Shown here: one piece after another, positions 19,366-35,226 of the stretch
Position numbering within the stretch: the stretch's first letter is position 1
How the letters are laid out: each line of letters opens with the position of its first letter
Assembly: GCA_965205865.1 (NCBI GenBank)
Contig: CBDBHR010000030.1
Coordinates: 320,001-384,000, forward strand
Source of the DNA: a bacterium
GTDB lineage: Bacteria; SAR324; NAC60-12
Reading direction: 5' to 3'
DNA: 64,000 bases
Program-made: the position numbers and the translations under genes
The notes under the pieces: model-generated
Seen by the model: only the letters and a program-made list of their open reading frames with translations
What the model was told of the DNA's origin: nothing
The model's database searches: none

Positions 19366-19913
19366 CTGGCTGCCAGAAAATAGTCATTCTCTTTAATGCC
19401 CACCACAGCGCCACGGATGACTCGGGAGCCGCCGACACCTCCGTCAACCCCCAGGACCACGATGATCTGGAGGAGCCCTTGTCACACAATGGACATGATG
19501 GTTAACTAGAGCAGCAGCCCCTGGAAGGCCATCCAGGTATCGACAAAGCGCTGCACCGCCAGGTCCACTTTCCCTCCAAGGTATCCGGAAGTGCCGCCGA
19601 TCAGGACCGCGATGAGTACGTTGAGCGCCGTCGCAGCCAAACCGACGGATAAGGAAATACGAGCTCCGTAGAGCAGGCGGTTAAATAAGTCCCCTCCCAA
19701 GTGGTTGGTCCCCAACAGATATTGGACGGATGGGGCTTGCAGTATGTCGGCCAGGTGCATTTCCCGATAGGGATAAGGCGCCAGAACATCGGCAAAAAGC
19801 GCCACCACAATAAAGAGCAAGACGATCATCCCGCAGGCCTTCCCCAGGGGCTTCTCCCGCCACAGCCGGATGAAGAAATCCGCAAACCGGCCCCGTCGCT
19901 TGGATTCACTCAT
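19366..19913 (-). pseudogene. OppC-type permease 5' part, frameshifted
   Basis: REKPLG, LLGTNHLGGD...LYGARISL.VG, GGKVD..VQRFVD, then SRVIRGAVVGIKENDY in a shifted frame. Its start overlaps the oppB stop (ATGAGTGA). Confidence 0.85.
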
Positions 19914-20390
19914 ACCGTACTCTCGGGTCCAGATAGGGAAAAATCAGGTCGATGAGGAGATTGAGCAGCGCTACCCCGGTGGCGAAAAACAGATTGATTC
20001 CGGAGACCATCAGGTAGTCTCGCTCATTGAGGGCATTCACCAGGAAACGACCGAGCTCCGGCAGGTTGAAGATGTTCTCCATGATCACCGCGCCCCCGAC
20101 CAGGATAGGCAACTGCAGGCCGATCGGAGCACCACCGGGATGATGGCATTTTTGAGGGTGTGCCGGATAATCACGACCCGCTCCCTGTGTCTTTTGGACC
20201 AGGCGGTTCGGATATAATCCTGCCGGATCACCTCCAGCATCATGGTCCGGGTCAAGCACATAGTCGTCTCCGAGACCCACATGCCCAAAATTATGGCGGG
20301 AATGGCGAACATTTGAAGGTTCCCCAGGGGGGCATCGGTAAATCGAATCAGTTCCATTGAAGGTGATCACTACCACCAGACGGAGGGGTA
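19906..20390 (-). pseudogene. OppB-type permease 3' part (copy B), frameshifted, no insert
   Basis: RTMMLEVIRQDYIRTAWSK in one frame and GLQLPILVGGAVIMENIFNLP...YLDPRVRYE in another. Confidence 0.85.
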
Positions 20391-20556
20391 AATGATGACG
20401 ACAGTCCCGATGAACTTTGTCATTCTCTGCCCAATAAGCTAAATGAGGTCCTTTGCTTGACGAAAAGTTAATCATAAACTGTTACGTGTCCCCAGTTTTC
20501 ACTTACCTCAGTTAAAAATTGAAATAAATCTGGTCCGTTGAAGTTCGTTGAGCAAC

Positions 20557-20585
20557 TTGTCTCTCTGCCAAATCTTTGCTACACT
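20557..20585 (+). promoter_or_regulatory. Sigma70-like promoter of UPF0175/DUF3368 pair
   Basis: TTGTCT-17nt-TACACT with extended TG. Confidence 0.45.
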
Positions 20586-20620
20586 TTTATTCAGTGGAAT
20601 GACTCATCCTGAGAAGAAAG

Positions 20621-20875
20621 ATGGAATCAAAAATGACGATTGAATATCCGGCAAATTTGCCTGATATTTTGCAAGCCACTCGTTTGCAGTTTGAGCAGGA
20701 AGCACGAATGGCGATGGCTGTGAAACTGTTTGAAATGAAGCGCATCTCTTCAGGAATAGCGGCTGCTTTGGCTGGGATGGATCGTGTTTCATTTTTACTC
20801 CAGTTGCACCGATATGGAACCACAATGATCGATTTAGAAGAAGAAGAGTTGATCTCGGATATGGAAAATGCCTGA
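20621..20875 (+). CDS. UPF0175 family antitoxin
   Basis: EAR.AMAVKLFE..RISSG.AA.LAGM.RV.FL..L. Confidence 0.85.
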   Translation: MESKMTIEYPANLPDILQATRLQFEQEARMAMAVKLFEMKRISSGIAAALAGMDRVSFLLQLHRYGTTMIDLEEEELISDMENA

Positions 20876-21368
20876 AGCTGCTAAAATTGTCGTCAATACG
20901 GGTCCGATTTTGGCGCTTGTCGCAGCATTAGGTGATTTGAAAGTGTTACGCGCTCTCTACCAAGAGGTTTGGGTTCCTTTTGAAGTCTGCCAGGAAATAG
21001 AAGCAGGAGGTTCTCCAGGTTTTGCAGTCGAGGCATTTTTAGCAGAGCGCTGGTTCACCAAAACTTCCACCTCCCTTGAAATACCTTCTTTACTCCTCAA
21101 TTCTCTGGATCGTGGAGAGGCTTCCGTTATTCAACTGGCCCTGGAAAAAGAGATTCCCACAGTCTGTATTGATGAAGCAGCGGGTAGGCGTGTTGCCCGG
21201 TTAAGCGGATTAAACCTCACAGGATCAATCGGAATTTTACTACGCGCTCATCACGAAGTGTACCCATTTTCCATAGAAGACGCCATTCAAGGCATGCAGG
21301 ATAAAGGAGTTTGGCTCAGCCAGAGCATCATTGATTTCGTGCTGACTCAAATACAAGAAAATCACTAG
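20868..21368 (+). CDS. DUF3368 / PIN-domain toxin
   Basis: VVNTGP, LDRGEAS.I.LA, IDE..GRR.AR..GL..TGSIGIL. Confidence 0.85.
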   Translation: MPEAAKIVVNTGPILALVAALGDLKVLRALYQEVWVPFEVCQEIEAGGSPGFAVEAFLAERWFTKTSTSLEIPSLLLNSLDRGEASVIQLALEKEIPTVCIDEAAGRRVARLSGLNLTGSIGILLRAHHEVYPFSIEDAIQGMQDKGVWLSQSIIDFVLTQIQENH

Positions 21369-21465
21369 CGTATGCGAATCAAAACCAATTATGGTTGAAG
21401 TTCAAGAGCATGCGCAATGACTTCTGTTTCACCACAATCAAAGGTTGAATCATTTTGTTAAGGTA

Positions 21466-21674
21466 GAAGGAAGAAGACAGGAGACCACTAAAGCAGTCCC
21501 CCATCCCGGAGAATATTATGTTACAAAAATTGGCGGGTGTTTTGAAGGCGCCGCCCGCTGGTCTTGAGGAAAAGTGAGCTTGAATGACCCCAATATTGGA
21601 TCGCACTATTGCAGGAAAGGAAGAACAGTGGTAAACTGCAAATAGTTATTTCAAATTGAGGAAAAAAGGAAGTT
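21466..21674 (+). repeat. Recurrent ~200-bp element, copy 2
   Basis: Aligns by eye with 16815-17021; TTGCAG-17-TAAACT. Confidence 0.85.
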
Positions 21675-22232
21675 ATGAGAAGATTTTGGATCACTTTGTT
21701 TCTGGGAGCAATGAGCTTTTTGCTGAGCCATGTAGTGGTTTATGGGCAACAAACGCTCGGATTTACCCAGGATGATCGAGAGCGTATCATTCGGCTGGAA
21801 ACCACCTTAACGCTCTTTATGGAAGCTACTGATAAGCGGTTTATCGAATTACGGGAAGATATGAACAACCGCTCGAAGCAGGTTGACAAGCGCTTTGTCG
21901 AATTACGAGAAGACATGAACAAGCGCTTTGAACAAATGATGAATACCTTACAACTGATTGCCGGCATTTTTACCGTCCTGACTCTGGGTGTCATCGGATT
22001 TGCTTATTGGGACCGACGCACCATCATTCGCAAAGCCAAAGAAGAGACTCTGGAAACGCTGGCAGGGGAGGCCGCCCCTAAAGAACAAGCGACAATCGAC
22101 CAGGCTGTGGCGCAAGCGGTGCAGGAAATCAAAAAAGACCAGCGTCTGCCAGACTTGCTCTCGGCTTTACGAAAACTGGCCGCCACCGACCCGCCTCTGG
22201 CGAACGTGCTCAAAGAATTTCATTTATTGTAG
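21675..22232 (+). CDS. Coiled-coil membrane protein, paralog 2 (185 aa)
   Basis: Same architecture as 17022 with fewer repeats. Confidence 0.85.
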   Translation: MRRFWITLFLGAMSFLLSHVVVYGQQTLGFTQDDRERIIRLETTLTLFMEATDKRFIELREDMNNRSKQVDKRFVELREDMNKRFEQMMNTLQLIAGIFTVLTLGVIGFAYWDRRTIIRKAKEETLETLAGEAAPKEQATIDQAVAQAVQEIKKDQRLPDLLSALRKLAATDPPLANVLKEFHLL

Positions 22233-22290
22233 CTTCAATCACGCTCCTCACTACTTAGAGGGAGGGGAAGCGCTTATCCGGAAAACCCCT

Positions 22291-22690
22291 TTATTCATAC
22301 CGCACTCTCGGGTCCAAATAGGGATAAATCAGGTCGATCATGAGATTGAGCAGCACCACCGCGGTGGCGAAAAAGAGGTTGACTCCGGAGACCATCGGGT
22401 AGTCTCGGTCATTGAGAGCACTCAGCAAGAGACGGCCGAGGCCCGGCAGGTTGAAGATGTTCTCCATGATCACGGCGCCTCCCACCAGGATCGGCAACTG
22501 CAGGCCGCAGAGAAGCTGGGCGGGCGCAGCGCGGCCAATAAGCCCAGCTGAACGCGTCACCACCGGGATGAGAGCATTTTTGTGGGTGTGCCGGATCACC
22601 ACGGCCCGCTCCTTGAGCCCCTTACCAGGCGGTGCGGATATAGTCCTGTCTTAAGACCTCCAGCATCATGGTGCGCATCATTCGCAGGGT
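22291..22690 (-). pseudogene. OppB-type permease 3' fragment (copy C) with palindromic insert
   Basis: RMMRTMMLEVLRQDYIRTAW (frameshifted) through YLDPRVRYE. Confidence 0.85.
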
Positions 22691-22768
22691 GACTTTACAT
22701 TCCATGTTCTGGTTCCTTCATAGCAATTTCTTATGATAAAGACCGAAGCTCAATTAAGGGAAGAAAAG

Positions 22769-23164
22769 TTAGGCAGCTAGGGTTTTTACATGAGAGTATT
22801 CCAATATATTTTGATCGACTGTCATTAAAGGATAATCATAAACTCTCGCAGTGGCCACTATGATCTGATCGGCTGGGTCCCGATGGAAATCTCCGGGAAG
22901 TTGGGTGGATTCTACCACAATCCGTGGCGTGAGTTCTATCGAATGGACACATGGATAGACCAAGGCTATATTTAACCACTCTTCGAGGGGATCTGACAAA
23001 TGCAACCGGCCATATTTTACCAGTCTGGCAACCTCCCAACACGAGATTGTGCTGATGGCCAGACCTTCTTCGGCTTGTTCACCCAGCCATTTGAGTTTTT
23101 CCGGGCTCAGCCGATCACTGCCATGAACCCACCAGACCCAGATATGGGTATCCAGAAGAATCAT
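22769..23164 (-). CDS. vapC: VapC PIN-domain toxin
   Basis: ILLDTHIWVWW, IS.WEVA.L and FHRDPADQIIVATA. Confidence 0.92.
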   Translation of the reverse strand: MILLDTHIWVWWVHGSDRLSPEKLKWLGEQAEEGLAISTISCWEVARLVKYGRLHLSDPLEEWLNIALVYPCVHSIELTPRIVVESTQLPGDFHRDPADQIIVATARVYDYPLMTVDQNILEYSHVKTLAA

Positions 23165-23376
23165 TTCAGCGCCTCCCAGTCTTCCAAAGCAACGGGAGCG
23201 GTAGGATCTTCGTAGGAGAAAGGTTTCCCACGTAAAGGATAGCGTGGAGCGGGCTGAGGTTTGGGAATAGTTTTGAGCACAATGACTTCCACCATTTCTC
23301 CTGCTTGAAAGGGTAGATGATTTAGCACCAAAGTGCCATCTTCGGAGAGAGTGGTTTCAATACGATGGGCTTGCAT
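23161..23376 (-). CDS. Cognate antitoxin
   Basis: MQAHRIETTLSEDGTLVL..LPFQAGE.VEVIV...DWEALK; overlaps the vapC start. Confidence 0.8.
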   Translation of the reverse strand: MQAHRIETTLSEDGTLVLNHLPFQAGEMVEVIVLKTIPKPQPAPRYPLRGKPFSYEDPTAPVALEDWEALK

Positions 23377-23533
23377 GTTTGCCTTTCCTGAAAATGCAGT
23401 TTTTTTTCCAATGCATGGTCTTATTTTGGATTTGTTCAATCGCTTTTATTTTTATACAGCATTCCCTTGAATTTCTACAGAAAAAAATTTTACATCAGCT
23501 CCCCTGTAACGCTCTGATAGGGAATCCAATTGA

Positions 23534-23732
23534 GTAGCACGAAAGGCAGAAGACAGGGGACCCCTAAAGCAGTCCCCTATCCTGGAGGTAAGTCTGTTAT
23601 AAAAAAATGGCGGGTGTTATGTAGGCACCCCCCGCTGGCCTTGAGGAAAAGTGAGTTTGAATGACCCCCATATTGGATCACACGATTGCATGAAAGGAAA
23701 AACAGTGGTAAACCAAGCCGTTATTTCAAATT
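23534..23732 (+). repeat. Recurrent ~200-bp element, copy 3
   Basis: Same hairpins and TTGCAT-17-TAAACC; here upstream of a TA pair. Confidence 0.8.
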
Positions 23733-23869
23733 TCCCATCAAGAGATTAACCATCGGACTCACTGAATAAGGATGGGCGCTCAGTTGGGATGTGTAGGGAT
23801 CACACACTGAAAAATTCCTCTTCTCTTCCCAATCATTATGGCTCAATGAACCTTAGAAAAAAAAGCAGC

Positions 23870-24115
23870 ATGAACACAGCAGCAACCCAGAAAGTAGAAC
23901 TCCATCAAGCAATCAATCGCATCCCTGAGAATAAGCTGGAAGCCGCAAAAGTCTACTTGCATTCGCTGGCCCAAGAAGGGGCAAGCAACGAAGCTAAAAA
24001 AGGGAGCTTAGAAGGGATATGGGAAGGGACAGGACTTGAAAACCTCGACTTTGAAGCTGAATTGAAAAAACTGAGAAAAGAAATGAGTGAGGCGATCTTA
24101 TCCAGGAAATTTTAA
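23870..24115 (+). CDS. Putative antitoxin (DUF2281-like)
   Basis: 81 aa, ...KKGSLEGIWEG...LKKLRKEM; its stop overlaps the PIN gene start. Confidence 0.7.
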   Translation: MNTAATQKVELHQAINRIPENKLEAAKVYLHSLAQEGASNEAKKGSLEGIWEGTGLENLDFEAELKKLRKEMSEAILSRKF

Positions 24116-24498
24116 TGAAATACCTTGTAGATACCGTTGCCCTAAATCGTCATTTCACGAGAAATAAAAATATCGGGAAACAAGCCCGTGAGATCCTTTC
24201 CAATCCTGACGAAAACGTGTTTTATATCTCCATTGTGAGCCTCATGGAGATTTTGTATTTATCAGAAAAAAACAGGATAGATATTTCATTGAAAGAAACA
24301 CTAAGACGGATCAATGCCAAAGAAAGCTATCAGATTGTCGAACTTGATGCAGAAATTCTCCAAGTAGCCGAAACTGTCCCATTTCCTGAGCTTCATGACC
24401 GATTAATACTTGCGACGGCAAAATGGCTTGAGGTTCCCATCATTTCAAGTGATAAGGATTTCCAAAATGTTGAAGGTATCACGACCATTTGGAAATAA
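24115..24498 (+). CDS. vapC: VapC PIN-domain toxin
   Basis: YLVDT, SIVSLMEILYL and ELHDRLI.ATA.....PIISSD. Confidence 0.9.
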   Translation: MKYLVDTVALNRHFTRNKNIGKQAREILSNPDENVFYISIVSLMEILYLSEKNRIDISLKETLRRINAKESYQIVELDAEILQVAETVPFPELHDRLILATAKWLEVPIISSDKDFQNVEGITTIWK

Positions 24499-24590
24499 TC
24501 CATCTTATCCTGTTTTGCTCTCCAATGTTCTCATTTCAAGTACCCTTCCCAGGAACAAGAAAGGCAACGGTTTTCCCAGGAGAGCCTTTC

Positions 24591-24648
24591 GTAGCACGGA
24601 AGGCAGAAGACGGGGGACCACCGCAGTAGTCCCCTATCCTGGAGGTAA
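24591..24648 (+). repeat. Recurrent element, 5' partial copy 4
   Basis: gtagcacggaaggcagaagacGGGGGAC..GTCCCCtatcctggaggtaa. Confidence 0.75.
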
Positions 24649-24693
24649 AGCAGTGGAAACTCTGGAATTGTGAGAACAACCCCTTTTGCGTGC

Positions 24694-24997
24694 TTACCCA
24701 TTGAAAGGATTGATCAGTCTGGCCAGGAGGCTTCTTTTGCGTTTCCCCGTGGTGCCGTAACTACCCTCACCTCCGCGCAGTCTGGGATCGAGCAGGTCTT
24801 CCATCGCGTCACCGAACATGTTGAGGGAATAGACGGTAATCGTCAGGAAAAGCCCCGGCCAGAGCGCCAGCCAAGGGGCCGCCTCCATGTACTGACGCCC
24901 TTCGCGGCTGAGCAGTCCCCCCCAACTGGGAATCTCGACGGGCAGCCCGAATCCGAGGAAGCTCAGCGAAGCCTCGGCAATGATGACGCCGCCAATT
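24694..24997 (-). pseudogene. OppC-type permease 3' fragment
   Basis: [14 protein letters not shown]...PSWG.LL...APWLALWPG..LTITV..LNMFGDA..D.LDPR. Confidence 0.85.
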
Positions 24998-25105
24998 TCG
25001 GGCAGAAGCGTGGGAACGCTTAAGGCTCTTGCCTTTCCTCATCCGTTTCGATATTTTTCCATATATTATTCTATATTGGAAGTTTTCCTGAAACTGGAAG
25101 ACAGT

Positions 25106-25648
25106 ATGGATAAAAAAAGTAGCGTTCCCATTCAACAGCACATCCACTTGATCCGAGGAAAGGAGGTGATTATCGATTCAGATTTAGCGGAACTCTATGG
25201 CGTACCAACAAAGCGGCTCAATGAACAAGTTAAGCGTAACATAGAACGTTTTCCAGAGGACTTTATGTTTCAGATGACGAAAGAGGAGCTAGCTTATTGG
25301 AGGTCGCAAATTGCGACCTCCAATCCATCCAAAGCCAAAATGGGTCTACGCAGAAAACCCCACGTATTTACAGAACAGGGAGTGGCAATGTTATCCAGTG
25401 TGCTGAACAGCCCGATAGCAGTCCAGGTTAATATCCAGATCATGCGTGCTTTTGTCCAATTCCGCAGGATGCTGGCCTCTAATCAAGAACTTCTTGCCAA
25501 AATTACGGCAATGGAGGCAAAGTATGATGAGCAGTTCAAGATGATCTTTGAAGCGATCCGCTCCATGATCGAACAAAAAACTACAAAACGACAAATAGGA
25601 TTTGCAGTTCCTTCTAATAACCAAGGAATAATATCAAATGGAGGATAA
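25106..25648 (+). CDS. ORF6N domain DNA-binding protein
   Basis: [37 protein letters not shown] and [15 protein letters not shown]. Start reassigned to MDKK. Confidence 0.9.
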
Positions 25649-25667
25649 TTTGCCTGTACCTTTTCTT

Positions 25668-25713
25668 ATATTACATAAAATGGTGGGTGTTTGGAAGGCA
25701 CCGTCCGCTGGCC
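25668..25713 (+). repeat. Recurrent element, internal partial copy 5
   Basis: ttacataaaatggtgggtgtttggaaggcaccgtccgctggcc abuts the oppB stop. Confidence 0.7.
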
Positions 25714-26037
25714 TTATTCGTACCGCACCCGCGGGTCCAGATAGGGATAAATCAGGTCGATGAGGAGATTGAGCAGCACCACCCCGCTGGCGAAAAACAG
25801 GTTGACTCCGGAGACCATCGGGTAGTCTCTCTCATTGAGGGCATTCACCAAGAGACGACCTATCCCCGGCAGGTTGAAGATGTTCTCCATGATCACGGCG
25901 CCCCCGACCAGGATCGGCAACTGCAGGCCGCAGAGAGGCTAGGCGGCCGCAGCGCGGCCAATAAGCCCAGCTGAACGCGTGACCACCGGGATGAGGGCAT
26001 TTTTGAGGGTGTGCCGGATCACCACGATCCGCTCCTT
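25714..26037 (-). pseudogene. OppB-type permease 3' fragment (copy D) with palindromic insert containing a stop
   Basis: Same breakpoint and upstream spacer as copy A. Confidence 0.85.
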
Positions 26038-26262
26038 CATTTCAATCGAGAAAATAAAAGACAATTTAATATTTGACCCCATTCTAATATTTGACCCCTT
26101 TCCGCCACTCGGTCCTGACCACCTCTTCTTTTTGAAGCTCAAAAGGACACTTTCAGAGACACCGTAAGAGGGCGAGAGCAAAATCTATGAGGAGCAACTA
26201 TTTCTCATGGCACTTGCCCCCTTTGAAGATTACACAATAGCAAAGATAAGACGTGGTTTCAT

Positions 26263-26478
26263 GACACGGAAGGAAGCAAACAGGGGACCACCGCAGTAGT
26301 CCCCCATCCTAGAGGACATTATGTTACAAAAAATGGCGGGTGTTTGGAAAGCACCGCCTGCTGGCCTTGAGGAAAAGGGAGCTTGAATGACCCCCATATT
26401 GGATCGCACTATTGCAGGAAAGGAAGAACAGTGGTAAACTGCAAATAGTTATTTCAAATTGAGGAAAAAAAGGAGGTT
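26263..26478 (+). repeat. Recurrent ~200-bp element, copy 6
   Basis: Aligns with copies 1-3. Confidence 0.85.
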
Positions 26479-27090
26479 ATGAGAAGATTTTGGATCACTT
26501 TGTTTCTGGGAGCAATGAGCTTTTTGCTGAGCCATGTAGTGGTTTATGGGCAACAAATGCTCGGATTTACCCAGGATGATCGAGAGCGTATCATTCGGCT
26601 GGAAACCACCTTAACGCTCTTTATGGAAGCTACTGATAAGCGGTTTATCGAATTACGGGAAGATATGAACAACCGCTTTGAACAGGTAGATCAGCGGTTT
26701 ATCGAATTACGGGAAGATATGAACAACCGCTCGAAGCAGGTTGACAAGCGCTTTGTCGAATTACGAGAAGATATGAACAACCGCTTTGAACAGATGATGA
26801 ATACCTTGCAACTGATTGCCGGCATTTTTACCGTCCTGACTCTGGGTGTCATCGGATTTGCTTATTGGGACCGACGCACCATCATTCGCAAAGCCAAAGA
26901 AGAGACTCTGGAAACGCTGGCAGGGGAGGCCGCCCCTAAAGAACAAGCGACAATCGACCGGGCTGTGGCGCAAGCGGTGCAGGAAATCAAAAAAGACCAG
27001 CGTCTGCCAGACTTGCTCTCGGCTTTACGAAAACTGGCCGCCAACGACCCGCCTCTGGCGAACGTGCTCAAAGAATTTCATTTATTGTAG
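26479..27090 (+). CDS. Coiled-coil membrane protein, paralog 3 (203 aa)
   Basis: Paralog 2 plus one 18-aa repeat unit. Confidence 0.85.
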   Translation: MRRFWITLFLGAMSFLLSHVVVYGQQMLGFTQDDRERIIRLETTLTLFMEATDKRFIELREDMNNRFEQVDQRFIELREDMNNRSKQVDKRFVELREDMNNRFEQMMNTLQLIAGIFTVLTLGVIGFAYWDRRTIIRKAKEETLETLAGEAAPKEQATIDRAVAQAVQEIKKDQRLPDLLSALRKLAANDPPLANVLKEFHLL

Positions 27091-27147
27091 CTTCAATCAC
27101 GCTCCTCACTACTAGAGGGAGGGGAATCGCTTATCCGGAAAACCCCT

Positions 27148-28110
27148 TCACTCATACCGCACTCTCGGGTCCAGATAGGGATAAATCAGGTCGATGAGGA
27201 GATTGAGCAGCACCACCCCGCTGGCGAAAAACAGGTTGACTCCGGAGACCATCGGGTAGTCTCGGTCATTGAGGGCATTCACCAAGAGACGCCCGATCCC
27301 TGGCAGGTTGAAGATGTTCTCCATGATCACCGCGCCCCCGACCAGGATCGGCAACTGCAGGCCGATCAGGGTGATAACCGGGATGAGGGCATTTTTGATG
27401 GTGTGCCGGATAATCACTACCCGCTCCCTGAGTCCCTTGGACCAGGCGGTCCGGATATAGTCCTGCCGGAGCACCTCCAGCATCATGGTGCGCATCATCC
27501 GCATGGTGGCGGCAGAGGAGGCCGTTCCCAGAATCAGGCTGGGAATGAGGAACACCGCCAGATTCCCCAGCGGGTCTTCGGTGAAAGAAACCAGCTCCAG
27601 CGGCGGCGCCCAACCCCACCAGATGGCCGGGTAGATCATGACCATAATGCCCAGCCAGAAGTTCGGCGTGGCCAGGCCGATGACGGCGAGGGAGCGCCCC
27701 ACGTAGTCGGCGGCCGTATCCTGGCGAATCGCCGAGTAGATGCCGATTGGCAGCGCGATCACGAGCCCGATGAGGATTGCCATCAAACCGAGCTCAATGG
27801 TGACCGGCAGTCTCTCTAATATCGCCTCCTCCACCGAGTTTCTCGTAAACAGGGATTCGCCAAGGCTGCCGTGCAGGAAAATATCTCCTATCCATCGTCC
27901 ATACTGCACGTAAACAGGCACGTCCAATCCCAGCATACGCTCAAGAGCTTCACGGTCTACATCCCATTGCACATTGAACATTCCCATCCTGCCCACGATG
28001 ACGTCTATGACATCGCCGGGGATGAAGCGCACCGAGAGGAAGACCAGGATGCTCAAGATAAACAGGGTGGGGATTATCAGCAATAACCGCCTGATGATAT
28101 AGGCTCTCAT
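27148..28110 (-). CDS. Intact OppB/DppB-type ABC permease (320 aa)
   Basis: MRAYIIRRLLL..PTL...RFIPGD, RLPVT.EL, QDYIRTA.SKGL and ENIFNLPG.G. Confidence 0.93.
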   Translation of the reverse strand: MRAYIIRRLLLIIPTLFILSILVFLSVRFIPGDVIDVIVGRMGMFNVQWDVDREALERMLGLDVPVYVQYGRWIGDIFLHGSLGESLFTRNSVEEAILERLPVTIELGLMAILIGLVIALPIGIYSAIRQDTAADYVGRSLAVIGLATPNFWLGIMVMIYPAIWWGWAPPLELVSFTEDPLGNLAVFLIPSLILGTASSAATMRMMRTMMLEVLRQDYIRTAWSKGLRERVVIIRHTIKNALIPVITLIGLQLPILVGGAVIMENIFNLPGIGRLLVNALNDRDYPMVSGVNLFFASGVVLLNLLIDLIYPYLDPRVRYE

Positions 28111-28239: not shown

Positions 28240-31060
28240 CTAATAACCCATTGCTTCCTTCAGCTCACTATCAATCCAGAGGCGGGTCAAAACCTGGTTA
28301 AATTGACCGTTTCCCATGTACACTTCATTGTTAAAACCTATGAGCCACGGTTGGACCGCGGTAAAAGCTGGAAAATTAGGAGTCCATATCGACCAGAACT
28401 CCTCTATCCCATACTGATTCAACTCTCCAGCTAACCTGTACTGCTCGTCGAGAGTGGTAGCGGCTAAGGCGGCTTCAAACTTGGCTGTATAAACCGGGTC
28501 GTTGACATTGGAGCTGTTCCAATGTGCGCCCGGCGTATAACGTTTTTGGGTGCCCACTGGATCCCCATAGTTAGCCATTTCCGCATTGATCATTTCGAAA
28601 TCCCTCTCACCTCTTTTAGCGGAAAATTCAGCTCCTGGCTGTACATCAATCTCTGCTACATCAATGCCAATCTTATTCCAGTATGAAAAGACTAATTGTA
28701 CATAGTTCAAATCGTAGCGGTCGATATGCAAGAACTTGGTCTTGAATCTAATGCCGTCCGCGCCGCGCTTGTACCCGGCCTCATCAAGGAGCTTTTCGGC
28801 ACCTTCCGGGTCGTAGTCAAAGACTTTCTTGACGTCTTCGGGCCAATCTTCAAATTGGGTGACAACCTCTGTATAAGACCGGTTTAGCTGCCCCTGGGGT
28901 ATCGTATCGGCATAACCCCCAAAGTAGGTATTGTTAATTTCTTCGAGGTTTATTGCCATTTGCATGGCCTTGCGCACCCGGATGTCGGAAAAATACGGCA
29001 ACTGAACGTTGATGCCAAAACCATTATCCGACCGACCGGTCCACGGCCATATCACGATTTCGGGGTTGGTCCGCTTAAGGCTCTCTACCTGATCGAGACT
29101 CCTGATTTGAGTGTTGCCGAGCACACCCATGTAATCAAGCTTACCCGTGCGCAGTGCCGCCAGCTGTGTTGCCACTTCGGGCATAATCAGGTTCCTTAAC
29201 TGGTCAATATAGGGCAGGCGGTTCTCCGCGTATTTTTCGTCGTAGGCCCAGTAGTCAGGATTCTTGTCCCAGGTGATAGAGCTGCCCTCGGTCCAGTCAG
29301 TCAGCATCATGGGTCCGGTGCCGACCAGGTTCCTCCAATCCGAAATGTCGCCGTGTTCCTTGATTACCTCGGGCGGGTATATCCAGGCAGACCAGTCGCC
29401 GAGGATAGAAGTCAGCGCACCGAGGTATGGCTCCTTCAGCTTAAAAACAACCGTCCATTTGTCAGTGACCTCTATCGATTCCAAATCCCAACTTTGGAAA
29501 CTATAAGCTGTTTGGGCTTTTTTCGGTGAAACCGCTACCCATACCCAACAGACGATGATAGTTAAACTCGATATCCTGGGCCGTCAGCTCACGACCGTTC
29601 ATCGGAGGCTTATCATGCCAGTGAACGCCCTGGCGGACTTTGATGATAATAGTTAGTGGGTCGGGCTGCGACCAGCTTTCCGCCAGCGCCCCTCTCGAGT
29701 AGGCTGGAGGGACGTTGAGATATTTGAAGGCAAATTTGTCCCTATCTATTCCCCAGTCCGCGATGGCCAGCTTCTCTGTAACGACCCCGGTGGATACATT
29801 CGACCCTCCACCAGACAGCAAGGAGTCAGGACCCGGCCACTCTGCTTTCAGGGCAAAGGTTAATGTCCCGCCATACTCTGGCGCGGACACCATCTTGCCG
29901 GTGGAGGGGTCTTTGACCATGTCCGAGGCGGCAAAGGTCAAGGTCGTGAAACCAAGTACAATCATGCTGAGGAGGGCCAGCATGGAACGCCCTTTTGAGT
30001 TTCGATGATGATTTATCATAATAATCCTTTCTTTCATTTGAGAAAAAGTAAACCAAAAGCACCCCGCCTGGAAATTTTCAAGCATCATTTCCGGCTGGGA
30101 TACCGTTTTGAGTATGGTCAATCCATACGATTTCCGTTCCCTTTGAGGAACGGAAGCTAAAACCCATTGATCACAGGCCAGTTCCTGATCCAAGCGGAAC
30201 AGCCGATAGGCCAGATAGATCAACGGGTTGAACCAATAAACACACTTGAGCGCTAAAGCCCAGGTGATGAAGAGAGAATCTTTGCGTTGTAGATGGGCCA
30301 GTTCATGAGCGAGAATGAATTCCGTTTCCCGTGGGGAAAAGCGTTCGGCAAACCGGAGGGGCAGCACCAGATTGGGATGCAACCATCCGATCACTGCAGG
30401 CCCCTGAATCCGTGCGGAGACGAACACGTCCCCCTGGAACTTCAGGCCCATTGTGAGGCACAGTTTTTCGAGCAACCTTCTCATTTCCAGGGAAGGTTTC
30501 CGCTTCTCTCGCAGCAGTTGCTTCTGAAAATGCGCATGCCGGTGTAATGTGAAAAGTCCCATCATCACGAATCCCCCAAGCCACACGAAGAAAATGATCG
30601 TCATGCCGTCTATTTCCGAAAAAACAGGCCACCCGCCAACCGAGGCGGAGGATGGGGAATCTCGAGGGGGGAAGCTGGGCTCACTCAAACGCTCCGCGGG
30701 AAAGGGAGAAGCCTTTTCCTGTATCGCCGTTTTCATGGATTCCCACCGAGCCTTATTCTCTACGTTGATCTGTTGGAATAAGGCTTCGGACGCAGTGAGG
30801 GGCTTTTTGTTTTGCAGCAGGGCAAACACCCCTTGCTGCATCTTGAAGTTATAAAGGATGTTTTGCCAGGAAGGGAGGAGACTGAGTTGTGTTTGAGGGG
30901 TGACGATGATCATCATTTTAAGAGCAGGGAGCAGCCAAAGCGCGTGACTCCATTTTGCCCCAAAATAACGAACCACCGGTTTGCGAATCACGAACACGAA
31001 AACGATTAAAAGACTGGACCACAGGGTGGCCTCAGCTAATCCGTACATTAGAGTTGCCAT
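28240..31060 (-). CDS. BlaR1/MecR1-type M56 peptidase fused to family-5 ABC substrate-binding domain; one +1 frameshift near 29500-29523
   Basis: M56 motifs W.LP.L, GP..IG...P..VLP, AHELAH.R.D, YWFNPL, QELACD and KERI. These are followed in frame by a TM and MVKDPSTGK..APEYGG, LAESW, VRQGVHWH. The other frame continues AYSFQSWDLESIEVTDKWTVVFKL...VGTGP to the SBP C-terminus. Confidence 0.85.
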
Positions 31061-31080
31061 TTCAACACCTCCTCAAGGGA

Positions 31081-31455
31081 TCAATCCATTTTTTCTAAAA
31101 GAATCTTCAATTCCTCAATTTCTTGCTTCGTCAATAATTCTTGTTCGGCAAAACTTGTGAGCAGCGGAGAGACTTTTCCGCCAAACCAATTCTGCAAAAA
31201 ATTTCTACTTTCCAAATGCAGATACACTTTTCGACAGACCATGGGAAAATACAGATACTTCCTCTTGTCCTTTTTGAACCCCAAAATCTTTTTCTTTAAC
31301 AAGCGGTTCAACAGAGTCTTTACTGTCTTGGCCTGCCAATCCTTCTGAGGAGCAAGGGTTTCAATCACCTCTTGGGCTGATTGCGGTGATTTTTCCCATA
31401 GCACCTCCATCACTTCACGCTCTGCATTGCTGATCTTCCTTGTCATCTTCGTCAT
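31081..31455 (-). CDS. BlaI/MecI/CopY family repressor
   Basis: ISNAE.EVM.VLW..SP..A.EV...L...W...TVKTLL.RL.KK..L and F.GK.SPLL..F. Confidence 0.95.
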   Translation of the reverse strand: MTKMTRKISNAEREVMEVLWEKSPQSAQEVIETLAPQKDWQAKTVKTLLNRLLKKKILGFKKDKRKYLYFPMVCRKVYLHLESRNFLQNWFGGKVSPLLTSFAEQELLTKQEIEELKILLEKMD

Positions 31456-31477
31456 TTCCTTTTTTCGCTTTCCTTGC

Positions 31478-31837
31478 ATGATTACCTTTGTAATCATTTT
31501 ATAAGAATTACATAGGTAATCTTAGAAATCAAACTTTTTTTACGAGATTGAAAATTTTTACCGGTTTTGATAAAATTTATTATAAGTTATTGAAATATTT
31601 CATTTATATTTCATTTTCATTCTTAAAAGATATGATTACCTTTGTAATCTTTTATAAGAATTACACAGGTAATCTCAGAAATCAAACTTTTTTTACGAGA
31701 TCGAAAATTTTTACCGGTTTTGAAAAAAAATTTTATGAGATATTGAATATTTATTTTCCGTCATTGAGAAATATGATTACCTTTGTAATCATATTATAAG
31801 AATTACACAGGTAATCTTAGAAATCAAACTTTTTTTT
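31478..31837. promoter_or_regulatory. Triplicated operator/promoter unit with six BlaI-type palindromes
   Basis: Units start at 31478, 31632 and 31773. Each has GATTACCTTTGTAATC and ATTACA(T/C)AGGTAAT. Confidence 0.8.
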
Positions 31838-34690: not shown

Positions 34691-35226
34691 TTGAGAAACT
34701 CTACTCAAAGCTCTTCCTGCCATCTGTTCGCCATGGCGCTGCCGGCGCGAGAAAACGTTATGCCGGCCTCATCGACGGTCACAAAGAGGTTGAATTCACC
34801 GGAATGGAAGTCGTGCGTCGGGATTGGACGGAACTTGCCAAGGACGTACAGCGTGAACTCTACAAGAGACTTTTCGCAGGGGAACCAGTAGAAGGTTATC
34901 TCGCAGATATCACGACCTCGCTGCGCAAAGGCGAACTCGACCACAAACTGGTTTATCGCAAGGGACTGAGAAAGAGCCTGGCGTCATACACGGCCAATAC
35001 GCCTCCACACGTTGCCGCAGCACGCAAATCGAGTAATCCGGGCCGCGTCGTTTCATACTTGATGACCGTCGCCGGCCCCGAACCCCTGGATGCGCTGCAG
35101 AACAGCCCGGACCGCCAACACTATCTCGACAAGCAAATCCGACCGGTCGCGGAACCGGTACTTGCCGTCCTTGGTCTCGACTTCGACGGGACCATCAGTG
35201 ATAATCGACAGATGTCGCTGTTTTAG
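34684..35226 (+). pseudogene. polB: DNA polymerase II (family B) 3' fragment
   Basis: LEFEKLY...GARKRYAGL...FTGMEVVRRDWT.LAK and KLVYRKGLRK.L..Y....PPHV.AAR, HYLDKQIRPVA. Confidence 0.8.

Follow-up and report, generated by a model that had tools for sequence, protein, structure and literature searches.

The 64,000-nt stretch of DNA analyzed here (the window), from a sponge-associated SAR324 bacterium, carries on its minus strand a blaI-like repressor gene, a gene in which an M56 zinc protease is joined to a family-5 solute-binding protein (SBP; the fusion is written M56::SBP5) and an oppB-type permease gene, in that order from head to tail according to the open reading frame (ORF) list and Pfam. 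On balance, these genes probably encode a one-step proteolytic switch of the BlaI/BlaR1 type in which a family-5 SBP has taken the place of the penicillin sensor, such that ligand binding on the tethered domain would lead to repressor cleavage and derepression of the operon. The SBP5 sensor on an M56 protease appears to be new; non-penicillin M56 sensors are already known and form the majority, and the repeated exchange of the sensor cassette was an unexpected feature.

Operon layout and domains of the fusion protein

Genes of the operon:
31081-31455, minus strand: blaI/mecI-type repressor gene (longest ORF to 31497, 138 aa; likely start ATG at 31455 or 31446)
28240-31060, minus strand: M56::SBP5 fusion gene, 939 aa with one extra base ignored
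29501-31060, minus strand: 519-aa ORF, 5′ part of the fusion, starting 20 nt downstream of blaI
28240-29484, minus strand: 414-aa ORF, 3′ part of the fusion, one base out of frame with the 519-aa ORF
27148-28110, minus strand: intact oppB-type permease gene, 320 aa (ORF to 28227, probable start 28110; PF00528, 1.1e-33, plus PF19300, the N-terminal domain)

The initial annotation of this DNA had described a blaI-like repressor followed by an M56 peptidase with intact HELAH and ELACD motifs, which runs through a transmembrane (TM) segment into a family-5 SBP (~939 aa after correction of a single frameshift) and is directly followed by an intact oppB. All of these elements were recovered. The 519-aa ORF matches Peptidase_M56 (PF05569, 9e-57, residues 8-349) and, at residues 457-512, positions 4-55 of the SBP_bac_5 model, and the match to SBP_bac_5 (PF00496) continues in the 414-aa ORF (model positions 66-360, 9.3e-46); both motifs were located, and removing one base in 29501-29523 gives the 939-aa frame. 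The region upstream of blaI is AT-rich (35% G+C). We compared the window with the two further fused copies of the source genome, on contigs C23 and C26, and with two fused loci of sequence OZ242383.1, L006 and L013. The blaI gene lies 19-20 nt upstream of M56::SBP5 in all five loci, oppB is the next gene after the fusion in four of the five, and all three full blaI genes of the source genome are paired with its three M56 genes. The window's sequence is present in sponge metatranscriptome libraries, one of which (RNA library X8) contains a 1472-nt contig across blaI and the M56 part as well as a 198-nt contig at the frameshift; this is a weak hint of expression of the fusion operon, DNA carry-over being possible.

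The repressor (Penicillinase_R, PF03965, 1.3e-33) aligns end to end and without gaps to MecI (1sd6, 7.4e-23, residues 3-122) and BlaI (1sd4, 1.1e-16, residues 2-121), and the alignment covers both the N-terminal winged helix and the C-terminal dimerization domain with its cleavage-site column. At the column of the MecI/BlaI Asn101-Phe102 cleavage site the repressor has Ser-Phe, which is invariant in five of five repressor paralogues.

Features of the fusion protein:
29987-31060, minus strand: M56 zinc-protease module (Pfam, BlaR1 profile match, fold)
30986-31039, minus strand: TM1 (hydropathy)
30899-30943, minus strand: TM2 (hydropathy)
30605-30898, minus strand: predicted periplasmic loop between TM2 and TM3, equivalent of the BlaR1 EL1 loop (by BlaR1 orientation)
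30545-30604, minus strand: TM3 (hydropathy)
30293-30307, minus strand: HELAH motif (sequence)
30170-30184, minus strand: ELACD motif (sequence)
29927-29986, minus strand: TM4, the junction helix, residues 359-378 (hydropathy; AlphaFold2 helix 356-378), ending LTFAA before the mature SBP sequence
28240-29926, minus strand: periplasmic family-5 (cluster C) solute-binding domain (Pfam; AlphaFold2 and Foldseek on the C26 paralogue)
29501-29523, minus strand: interval with the single +1 frameshift, where dropping any single base gives one 939-aa frame

In the protease, residues H252, E253, H256, D291, E293, C296 and D297 were unchanged in 44 M56 sequences. An M56 profile matched S. aureus BlaR1 (8exp) at 2.5e-21 over residues 3-320, a span that includes HExxH, the Glu motif and the autocleavage loop, and the BlaR1 Ser283-Phe284 autocleavage column corresponds to Cys334-Phe335 here, inside a GCFWF that is invariant in 12 fused sequences. 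While Foldseek with a whole 949-aa model gave only SBPs, BlaR1 surfaced once the M56 part was folded alone: for the AlphaFold2 model of window residues 1-395 (predicted local distance difference test, pLDDT, 73.3), the six best PDB matches were all BlaR1 cryo-EM chains (E 4e-8 to 3e-6), and a core of 166 columns superposed at 2.7 Å. The helices of this model span residues 2-33, 43-53, 152-184 and 356-378. Among the four membrane helices, TM3 and TM4 flank the protease; oriented as BlaR1 is, the protein would have its C-terminal domain outside. Ahead of TM4 stands a KER motif that is conserved to 90% or more in the 44 M56 proteins, distant ones included, and BlaR1 has KRR at that column. This conservation indicates that TM4 is the last helix of the M56 module itself and not an SBP leader.

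The C-terminal domain has a complete bilobed SBP_bac_5 fold (pLDDT above 90 over the domain in the C26 model). Foldseek matched it to DppA (6ofq, 1e-31) and to 5u4o (TM-score on the target, TMt, 0.83), with TMt values of 0.7-0.84 for DppA, OppA and NikA. No match to PF00905 was obtained, and by both Pfam and fold the domain is SBP_bac_5 and not a penicillin-binding SxxK sensor. Stand-alone paralogues have classical signal peptides ending ...AVAA↓EKK or ...PAAA↓QKY (arrow, cleavage site), the site lying 4-5 residues before a conserved (M/Y)V(K/T)DP.TGK motif. At the same place the fused proteins read LTFAA-SDMVKDP or LTFAA-QKYVTDP; the fused SBP lacks a cleavable signal peptide or lipobox of its own and has the M56 TM4 in its place. 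Since the fused LTFAA aligns with the stand-alone ...AA↓, the M56/SBP join sits exactly at the stand-alone leader-cleavage site.

Recurrence of the fusion and exchange of its binding domain

The initial annotation had allowed for an accidental fusion, but copies occur elsewhere in the same genome, in a same-genus genome, in OZ242383.1 and in 10 protein clusters. In the source genome (4.74 Mb, 30 contigs), whose RpoB has its best named relative in a SAR324 cluster MAG (84% identity), M56 occurs in three genes and no more, every one fused to SBP5. The copies on C23 and C26 are intact; their proteins, 940 and 949 aa long (the open frames measure 940 and 953 aa), carry both domains at full length (PF05569 about 1e-57, PF00496 1e-64 to 1e-67); the C26 paralogue is an intact model of the system, while the window copy has a frame error and a truncated transporter. 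In OZ242383.1, the fusions of L013 and L006 encode 936 and 946 aa, and L013 is syntenic with the window (helix-turn-helix gene, phosphoenolpyruvate carboxykinase gene, blaI, fusion, oppB), its fusion being intact. The same-genus genome G001 (single contig, 4.3 Mb), which together with OZ242383.1 counts as at most one independent genome, has three full copies and one remnant. When 40 relatives were searched with the M56 part (E <= 1e-20), the other 39 gave no match, placing an M56 module of this type in 2 of 41 genomes (source included) and 1 of 25 genera.

A whole-protein search of a 5.8-billion-protein collection listed 120 matches (clusters), 10 of which carry PF05569 and PF00496, with M56 parts that share 73% identity or more with the query; the other 110 listed are SBP-only. 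Among the 120 matches listed in a search with the M56 region, 109 are M56 proteins with TonB_C, TPR, ankyrin, HEAT, CarboxypepD_reg, DUF3738 or no second domain, with at most 44% local identity to the query, and one, P0077, is an SBP that retains an M56 tail. A HMMER search of 1.84 billion representatives gave no protein longer than 809 aa among the best 150 matches; other, distant M56-SBP fusions could exist, because a distant fusion with a very different SBP would rank lower in that list. The ESM Atlas returned only SBP5 clusters at score 0.85 and no fused cluster of at least 50 members, which has no bearing on novelty. Six fused clusters that were looked up have 13, 1, 10, 9, 3 and 3 members, many of them 940-943 aa long and from contigs that differ in length. 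Among the genomes searched, M56::SBP5 appears to be confined to one genus of sponge-associated SAR324 bacteria.

Comparison of the two halves of the fusion points to an M56 half that arose once and a sensor half that was replaced repeatedly by recombination with stand-alone paralogues, a feature that the initial annotation overlooked, as it did a possible release of the domain from its membrane anchor. When 12 fused proteins are compared, identity is 72-97% between M56 parts and, leaving aside one duplicate pair, 44-78% between SBP parts, and the two identities are uncoupled (M56/SBP: C26 and L006, 95/55; C23 and P0007, 95/46; P0008 and P0009, 94/51). Even the syntenic pair of window and L013 is 92% identical in M56 and 69% in SBP. 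Of 139 ORFs of the source genome that match this binding domain (153 matches by tblastn), 104 are near-full-length paralogues, and the fused binding domains are scattered among the ~104 stand-alone paralogues. A FastTree phylogeny of 128 binding domains requires 12 label changes to account for the 13 that are fused, at least 11 of them forced by starred branches. A second tree, built with IQ-TREE, took in 36 of these rows, namely all 13 fused domains plus 23 neighbours chosen after the first tree, and left out 92; here the approximately unbiased test rejected one clade of fused domains (difference in log-likelihood 3184, p 4e-38). Over 1,680 nt, the DNA of the L006 fusion gene matches a stand-alone SBP gene from the source genome at 98.75% identity; the matching stretch runs from about codon 388, immediately behind TM4, to the stop codon. 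Because of this near-identity, a fused domain of the L006 type is presumably ligand-competent. The window-type M56 is also joined to two further SBP domains (P0412 and P0411).

P0077 and an SBP at L006 16209-18071 have the M56 tail (KERI.MINHH plus TM4) as their N-terminus and no M56 body. Both appear to descend from fused genes that lost the protease body, and their leaders suggest that TM4 alone can serve as an export signal or anchor.

Candidate operators, the proposed switch and competing readings

Repeats upstream of blaI:
31480-31816, minus strand: three tandem promoter/operator modules, each with two dyads ATTAC-N4-GTAAT (operator role putative)
31480-31495 and 31506-31521, minus strand: dyads of module 1 (pattern search)
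31634-31649 and 31659-31674, minus strand: dyads of module 2 (pattern search)
31775-31790 and 31801-31816, minus strand: dyads of module 3 (pattern search)

BlaI/MecI operators are palindromes of the TACA/TGTA type at the repressor's own promoter. The dyad pattern gave 9 matches at 6 sites, against 0 expected, and none elsewhere in the window; genome-wide (4.74 Mb), ATTAC-N4-GTAAT occurs at 7 sites, 6 of which are these. The modules are direct repeats spaced 153 and 142 nt, which Tandem Repeats Finder missed and a direct-repeat search found. At L013 there are 3 dyad sites upstream of blaI, and the upstream regions of C26 and L006 have TACAGACTGTA. TGTAAT half-sites are enriched over shuffled sequences in the window (6, shuffle mean 0.75, reached in 0 of 300 shuffles), at L013 (4, mean 0.55, 1 of 300), at C26 (3, mean 0.38, 3 of 300) and at L006 (3, mean 0.51, 2 of 300). 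A sigma-70 scan found no convincing minus-strand promoter upstream of blaI. At the C26 locus, a partial tandem duplicate of the first ~50 blaI codons and the promoter (L005 12455-12650) lies upstream of the intact blaI. This duplicate and the three promoter modules of the window suggest that the regulatory regions of these operons duplicate readily.

By homology, the chain from ligand through BlaI cleavage to importer induction, as put forward in the initial annotation, would run as follows. The 939-aa protein would sit in the inner membrane on four helices, with its zinc protease facing the cytoplasm and its SBP tethered in the periplasm by TM4. A cognate solute would close the SBP domain, and closure would be relayed via TM4 and the TM2-TM3 periplasmic loop to the protease, as in BlaR1. 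The protease would then cut the BlaI-type repressor at the conserved Ser-Phe in its dimerization domain; release of the repressor from the ATTAC-N4-GTAAT dyads would induce blaI together with the fusion and permease genes. As the operon has no other binding-protein gene, the tethered domain probably also passes its solute to OppB/OppC, which would be powered by ATPases encoded elsewhere, as for the ~100 other ATPase-less SBP-permease modules of the genome. A predicted complex between the C26 M56 module (residues 1-395) and its BlaI scored 0.07 against a mark of 0.32, which is no evidence either way.

A more speculative extension, which we put forward tentatively and think possible rather than probable, is that the M56 half serves as a portable chassis for proteolytic switches. 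Homologous recombination from the DP.TGK.V.APEYGG patch to the 3′ end would plug in SBP cassettes from the ~100 paralogues, each swap retargeting the sensor/actuator to a new solute, with the tethered domain acting as both receptor and sensor. The invariant first half of the 97-residue periplasmic loop may fill the peptide-binding cleft as a pseudo-ligand that the solute displaces, a role drawn by analogy with the BlaR1 EL1 loop, and shedding by signal peptidase would clear unliganded receptors.

Several observations weigh against a tethered sensor that induces its own importer. The operon had been described as heading its own transporter operon, and of this description only oppB stands: it is the only intact transporter gene in the window, where oppC is in fragments, and there is no ATPase gene in the window nor one adjacent to any fused copy. 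The nearest solved SBPs, 5u4o (6.5e-27) and DppA, are remote, with 18-24% identity in fold alignments. The predicted recognition helix is identical in five BlaI paralogues, but the dyads are not the same from locus to locus, and C23 lacks all of these motifs and has 0 TGTAAT half-sites. For these reasons the assignment of the dyads as operators is tentative, and they are firm only as a repeated, locus-specific palindrome. Structure and topology prediction, proposed as a check in the initial annotation, bore out the four helices, a BlaR1-like M56 fold and a DppA-like SBP, but gave low confidence for the periplasmic loop (pLDDT below 50) and for TM4 (only 50-60), and the models hold no information on domain coupling. 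Finally, LTFA↓A meets the -3/-1 rule for signal peptidase I at the place where stand-alone paralogues are cleaved; because of this fit, and because the sensor of S. aureus BlaR1 is shed by signal peptidase (SpsB) at Gly331, just after the last helix (PMC9834060), the SBP domain may not stay tethered.

Alternatively, then, the SBP may be released, although we consider this unlikely. The fusion would be a precursor cut by signal peptidase I after TM4, or translation would restart at an internal Met before TM4, yielding a free periplasmic SBP for the transporter; the M56 stub would sense loaded free SBP docking on the periplasmic loop, as in LuxP/LuxQ or ChvE/VirA, or an unrelated cue. Release would be compatible with the tethered-sensor switch if shedding serves turnover only, as proposed for BlaR1. 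Besides the BlaR1 precedent, release is favored by the Ala-Ala that fused proteins keep at the stand-alone cleavage spot (LTFAA-QKYVTDP versus PAAA-QKYVTDP) and by the descendants without an M56 body, P0077 and the L006 SBP, which have the M56 tail and TM4 as their only N-terminal leader. However, the 19-20 hydrophobic residues of TM4 lead directly into Ala-Ala, and there is no polar c-region with a Pro or Gly to break the helix, whereas the stand-alone leaders have one (VSPAAA, GPTAAA). By the usual signal-peptide rules such a stretch favors an uncleaved anchor. The Phe at -3 in the FAA↓ reading is also unfavorable, and the fact that the fusion stayed in frame through many cassette exchanges suggests that the covalent link matters.

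We regard it as improbable that the window copy is a decaying remnant, with a real frameshift and a rearranged downstream region, and that only the C23 and C26 copies work. The extra base is present in the assembly, where the two SBP pieces sit in frames one base apart; downstream, oppC fragments lie amid duplicated oppB ends, PIN genes and an ORF6N gene, and several cluster members in other assemblies are truncated too. To set against this, we aligned Logan contigs from four runs of four studies (X1, X3, X7 and RNA library X8) to the window. In four of four runs, the contig covering the frameshift (198 nt, 29438-29636, with two other differences from the window) was without one base at ~29509. 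The base was left out in all depth (34.7/34.7, 22.2/22.2, 8.4/8.4 and 10.2/10.2), to which no weight was given as contig depth is inflated by paralogues. X3 and X7 are otherwise near-identical to the window (0-1 differences over 30291-31681). Since the covering contigs of all four runs lack the base, the frameshift is an assembly error or a strain-private change that the population lacks. Moreover, apart from this base, the frames of blaI, of both parts of the fusion and of oppB are open and conserved, and the syntenic L013 copy is intact at 936 aa. With the ~29509 base removed, the junction reads ...GFTEKSPN-AYSFQSW..., in closer agreement with the TE(K/R)S seen in relatives than if the slip were placed in the A6 run (29518-29523); that run was ruled out as the site of the frameshift because the public contigs put the extra base at ~29509. 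Four-letter decoding was also considered and rejected: with AAAA as Lys the frame shifted at nine places, while AGCC as Ala over 29083-31060 gave a clean 659-aa read-through (P0001) that was unneeded given the intact paralogues and was not used as a query.

Still less credible is a reading in which M56 is no signal transducer at all but an anchor, or a housekeeping or processing protease, for a tethered SBP, with BlaI answering another cue. Membrane-tethered SBPs do work in transport in other bacteria, and the signaling chain of the proposed switch rests on homology. Against this, the catalytic residues, the Phe of the autocleavage loop and the Ser-Phe of the repressor are all invariant, and the strict one-to-one pairing with blaI at 19-20 nt is a signature of BlaIR systems.

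An assembly chimera, in which two unrelated genes were misjoined at a repeat, can be dismissed in practice, since the same junction occurs in three loci of the source genome, in three of the single-contig 4.3-Mb genome and in full-length fused proteins from six clusters, where the contigs are as long as 1.26 Mb for clusters 1 and 3-6 and 4.26 Mb for P0006, and its sequence is identical in all 12 aligned fused sequences. Over 29480-30060, where the initial annotation had proposed to map reads, the public contigs lack the extra base and leave the M56/SBP junction unbridged: short-read unitigs break near 29972-29974, and none of those listed longer than ~110 nt bridges TM4. Short-read contigs stop there because the paralogues share sequence at TM4, and they neither support nor refute the junction.

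Relation to known systems and transporter background

The system resembles BlaR1/MecR1 with BlaI/MecI of S. aureus and B. licheniformis (8EXP-8EXT) in having the repressor gene directly upstream, four helices, a cytoplasmic HExxH...E gluzincin, a TM2-TM3 loop, Phe at the autocleavage P1′ column, a KER/KRR motif ahead of the last helix and, at the C-terminus, an extracytoplasmic domain for ligand binding; the full-length repressor likewise has Phe at P1′ of the known cleavage site. According to the part of the BlaR1 study drawn on here, BlaR1 cleaves BlaI directly at Asn101-Phe102, autocleaves at Ser283-Phe284, i.e., after Ser in its own loop, and has an EL1 loop that fills the ligand groove of the sensor until ligand displaces it (PMC9834060). 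The systems differ in that the sensor here is a ~560-aa family-5 SBP (reversible Venus-flytrap closure) instead of an acylated class-D beta-lactamase-like domain, the adjacent genes under proposed control encode ABC permeases and neither a beta-lactamase nor PBP2a, the repressor site has Ser in place of Asn at P1, and the host is a Gram-negative-type SAR324 bacterium.

Non-penicillin sensors are frequent in this family: in the part of a recent M56 survey covered here, most M56 proteins adjoin a BlaI homologue and carry such sensors, ~96% have a BlaI gene within 5 genes, and among 254 architectures transpeptidase sensors make up ~6% of entries (10.64898/2026.04.08.717257). The system thereby resembles atypical BlaIR systems (CenIR of C. 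difficile; M56-TonB_C, M56-TPR), which combine M56, a BlaI homologue and a non-penicillin C-terminal domain; unlike in these, its sensor domain, SBP_bac_5, is not among the nine common architectures named in that preprint, whose full list of 254 lies beyond the part covered. We likewise found no description of an M56-SBP5 architecture in the literature, in line with the initial annotation, although the 254-architecture list of the CenIR preprint might include one. As in Dpp/Opp/Nik importers (PepT; DppA 1DPP, DppABCDF 8Z1Z), the SBP fold (TMt 0.74-0.83) goes with adjacent OppB/OppC-type permeases; unlike in these importers, the SBP is without its own cleavable leader and fused to a protease, its sequence identity to solved SBPs is ~18-24%, and the operon has no ATPase genes.

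SBP-fold sensors are known elsewhere. The Venus-flytrap kinases BvgS/EvgS and the pairs LuxP-LuxQ, TorT-TorS, ChvE-VirA and MBP-Tar report ligand occupancy to transmembrane signaling proteins, with phosphorylation or chemotaxis as output, and most use a separate SBP or families 1-3. Here, by contrast, the output would be direct repressor proteolysis, from a family-5 sensor probably shared with transport.

To our knowledge, no bacterial sensors other than BlaR1-type receptors convert the binding of an extracellular ligand directly into cleavage of a repressor within the cell, and we know of almost no natural ligand, beta-lactams aside, for the thousands of M56 proteins with other sensors. Ligands of an SBP fold can be screened in vitro by thermal shift or ITC and its conformational change is well understood, so that signaling by non-canonical BlaIR systems would become directly testable. 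The exchange of cassettes on a near-constant protease suggests a coupling independent of the details of the binding domain, which would be useful for biosensors. The system may also illustrate how a symbiont with ~100 uptake modules and few regulators can put chosen modules under substrate control; if the proposed switch is right, the nutrient itself probably turns on the genes for its uptake. Among the genomes searched the system is confined to one SAR324 genus, which limits its general importance.

The oppB of the window is 78-86% identical to those of other fused loci. Only at C26 are oppB and oppC both intact and adjacent; C23 has a YhgA-like transposase gene between them, L013 has a 112-aa permease fragment only and L006 none. 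None of the fused loci examined has a complete Opp/Dpp operon (SBP, two permeases and two ATPases together). The source genome has ~105 oppB paralogues (80-88% identical) and only 18 matches to oligo_HPY (Opp-type) ATPases, none of them in the window or in the 18-kb paralogue loci L004 and L005. Given ~104 SBPs and ~105 oppB genes against these 18 matches, most uptake modules must, by gene content, either draw on a small shared set of ATPases or lack activity.

The intact oppB of the window adjoins a convergent coiled-coil gene, which is followed by pieces of oppB and oppC, a pair of PIN genes and an ORF6N gene; the region 19500-27100 is a heap of transporter debris.

Features of this region:
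24694-25038, minus strand: C-terminal fragment of an oppC-type permease (PF00528 positions 111-183 of 184), all that remains of oppC near the operon
19906-20475, 22291-22650 and 25714-25938: oppB 3′ fragments
19506-19913: OppC_N piece
21662-22650 and 26466-27450: duplicated ~1-kb unit of coiled-coil gene and oppB 3′ end (95-98% identity in the coiled-coil part, 73% in the oppB 3′ end)
22769-23164 and 24115-24498: PIN toxin genes
24980-25648: ORF6N gene

The coiled-coil gene, present in the window at 26479-27090 and 21675-22232 (both plus strand) and at L005 5356-6063, encodes a membrane-anchored product with (K/D)(K/Q)RF(I/V)ELREDMNNR repeats. It converges on the end of the permease gene in both the window and the C26 locus and matches no Pfam family. 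Further along the window, an isolated 140-aa ORF at 34804-35226 (plus strand) resembles, on visual inspection, the C-terminus of some larger enzyme, perhaps a DNA polymerase, and may be another gene fragment.

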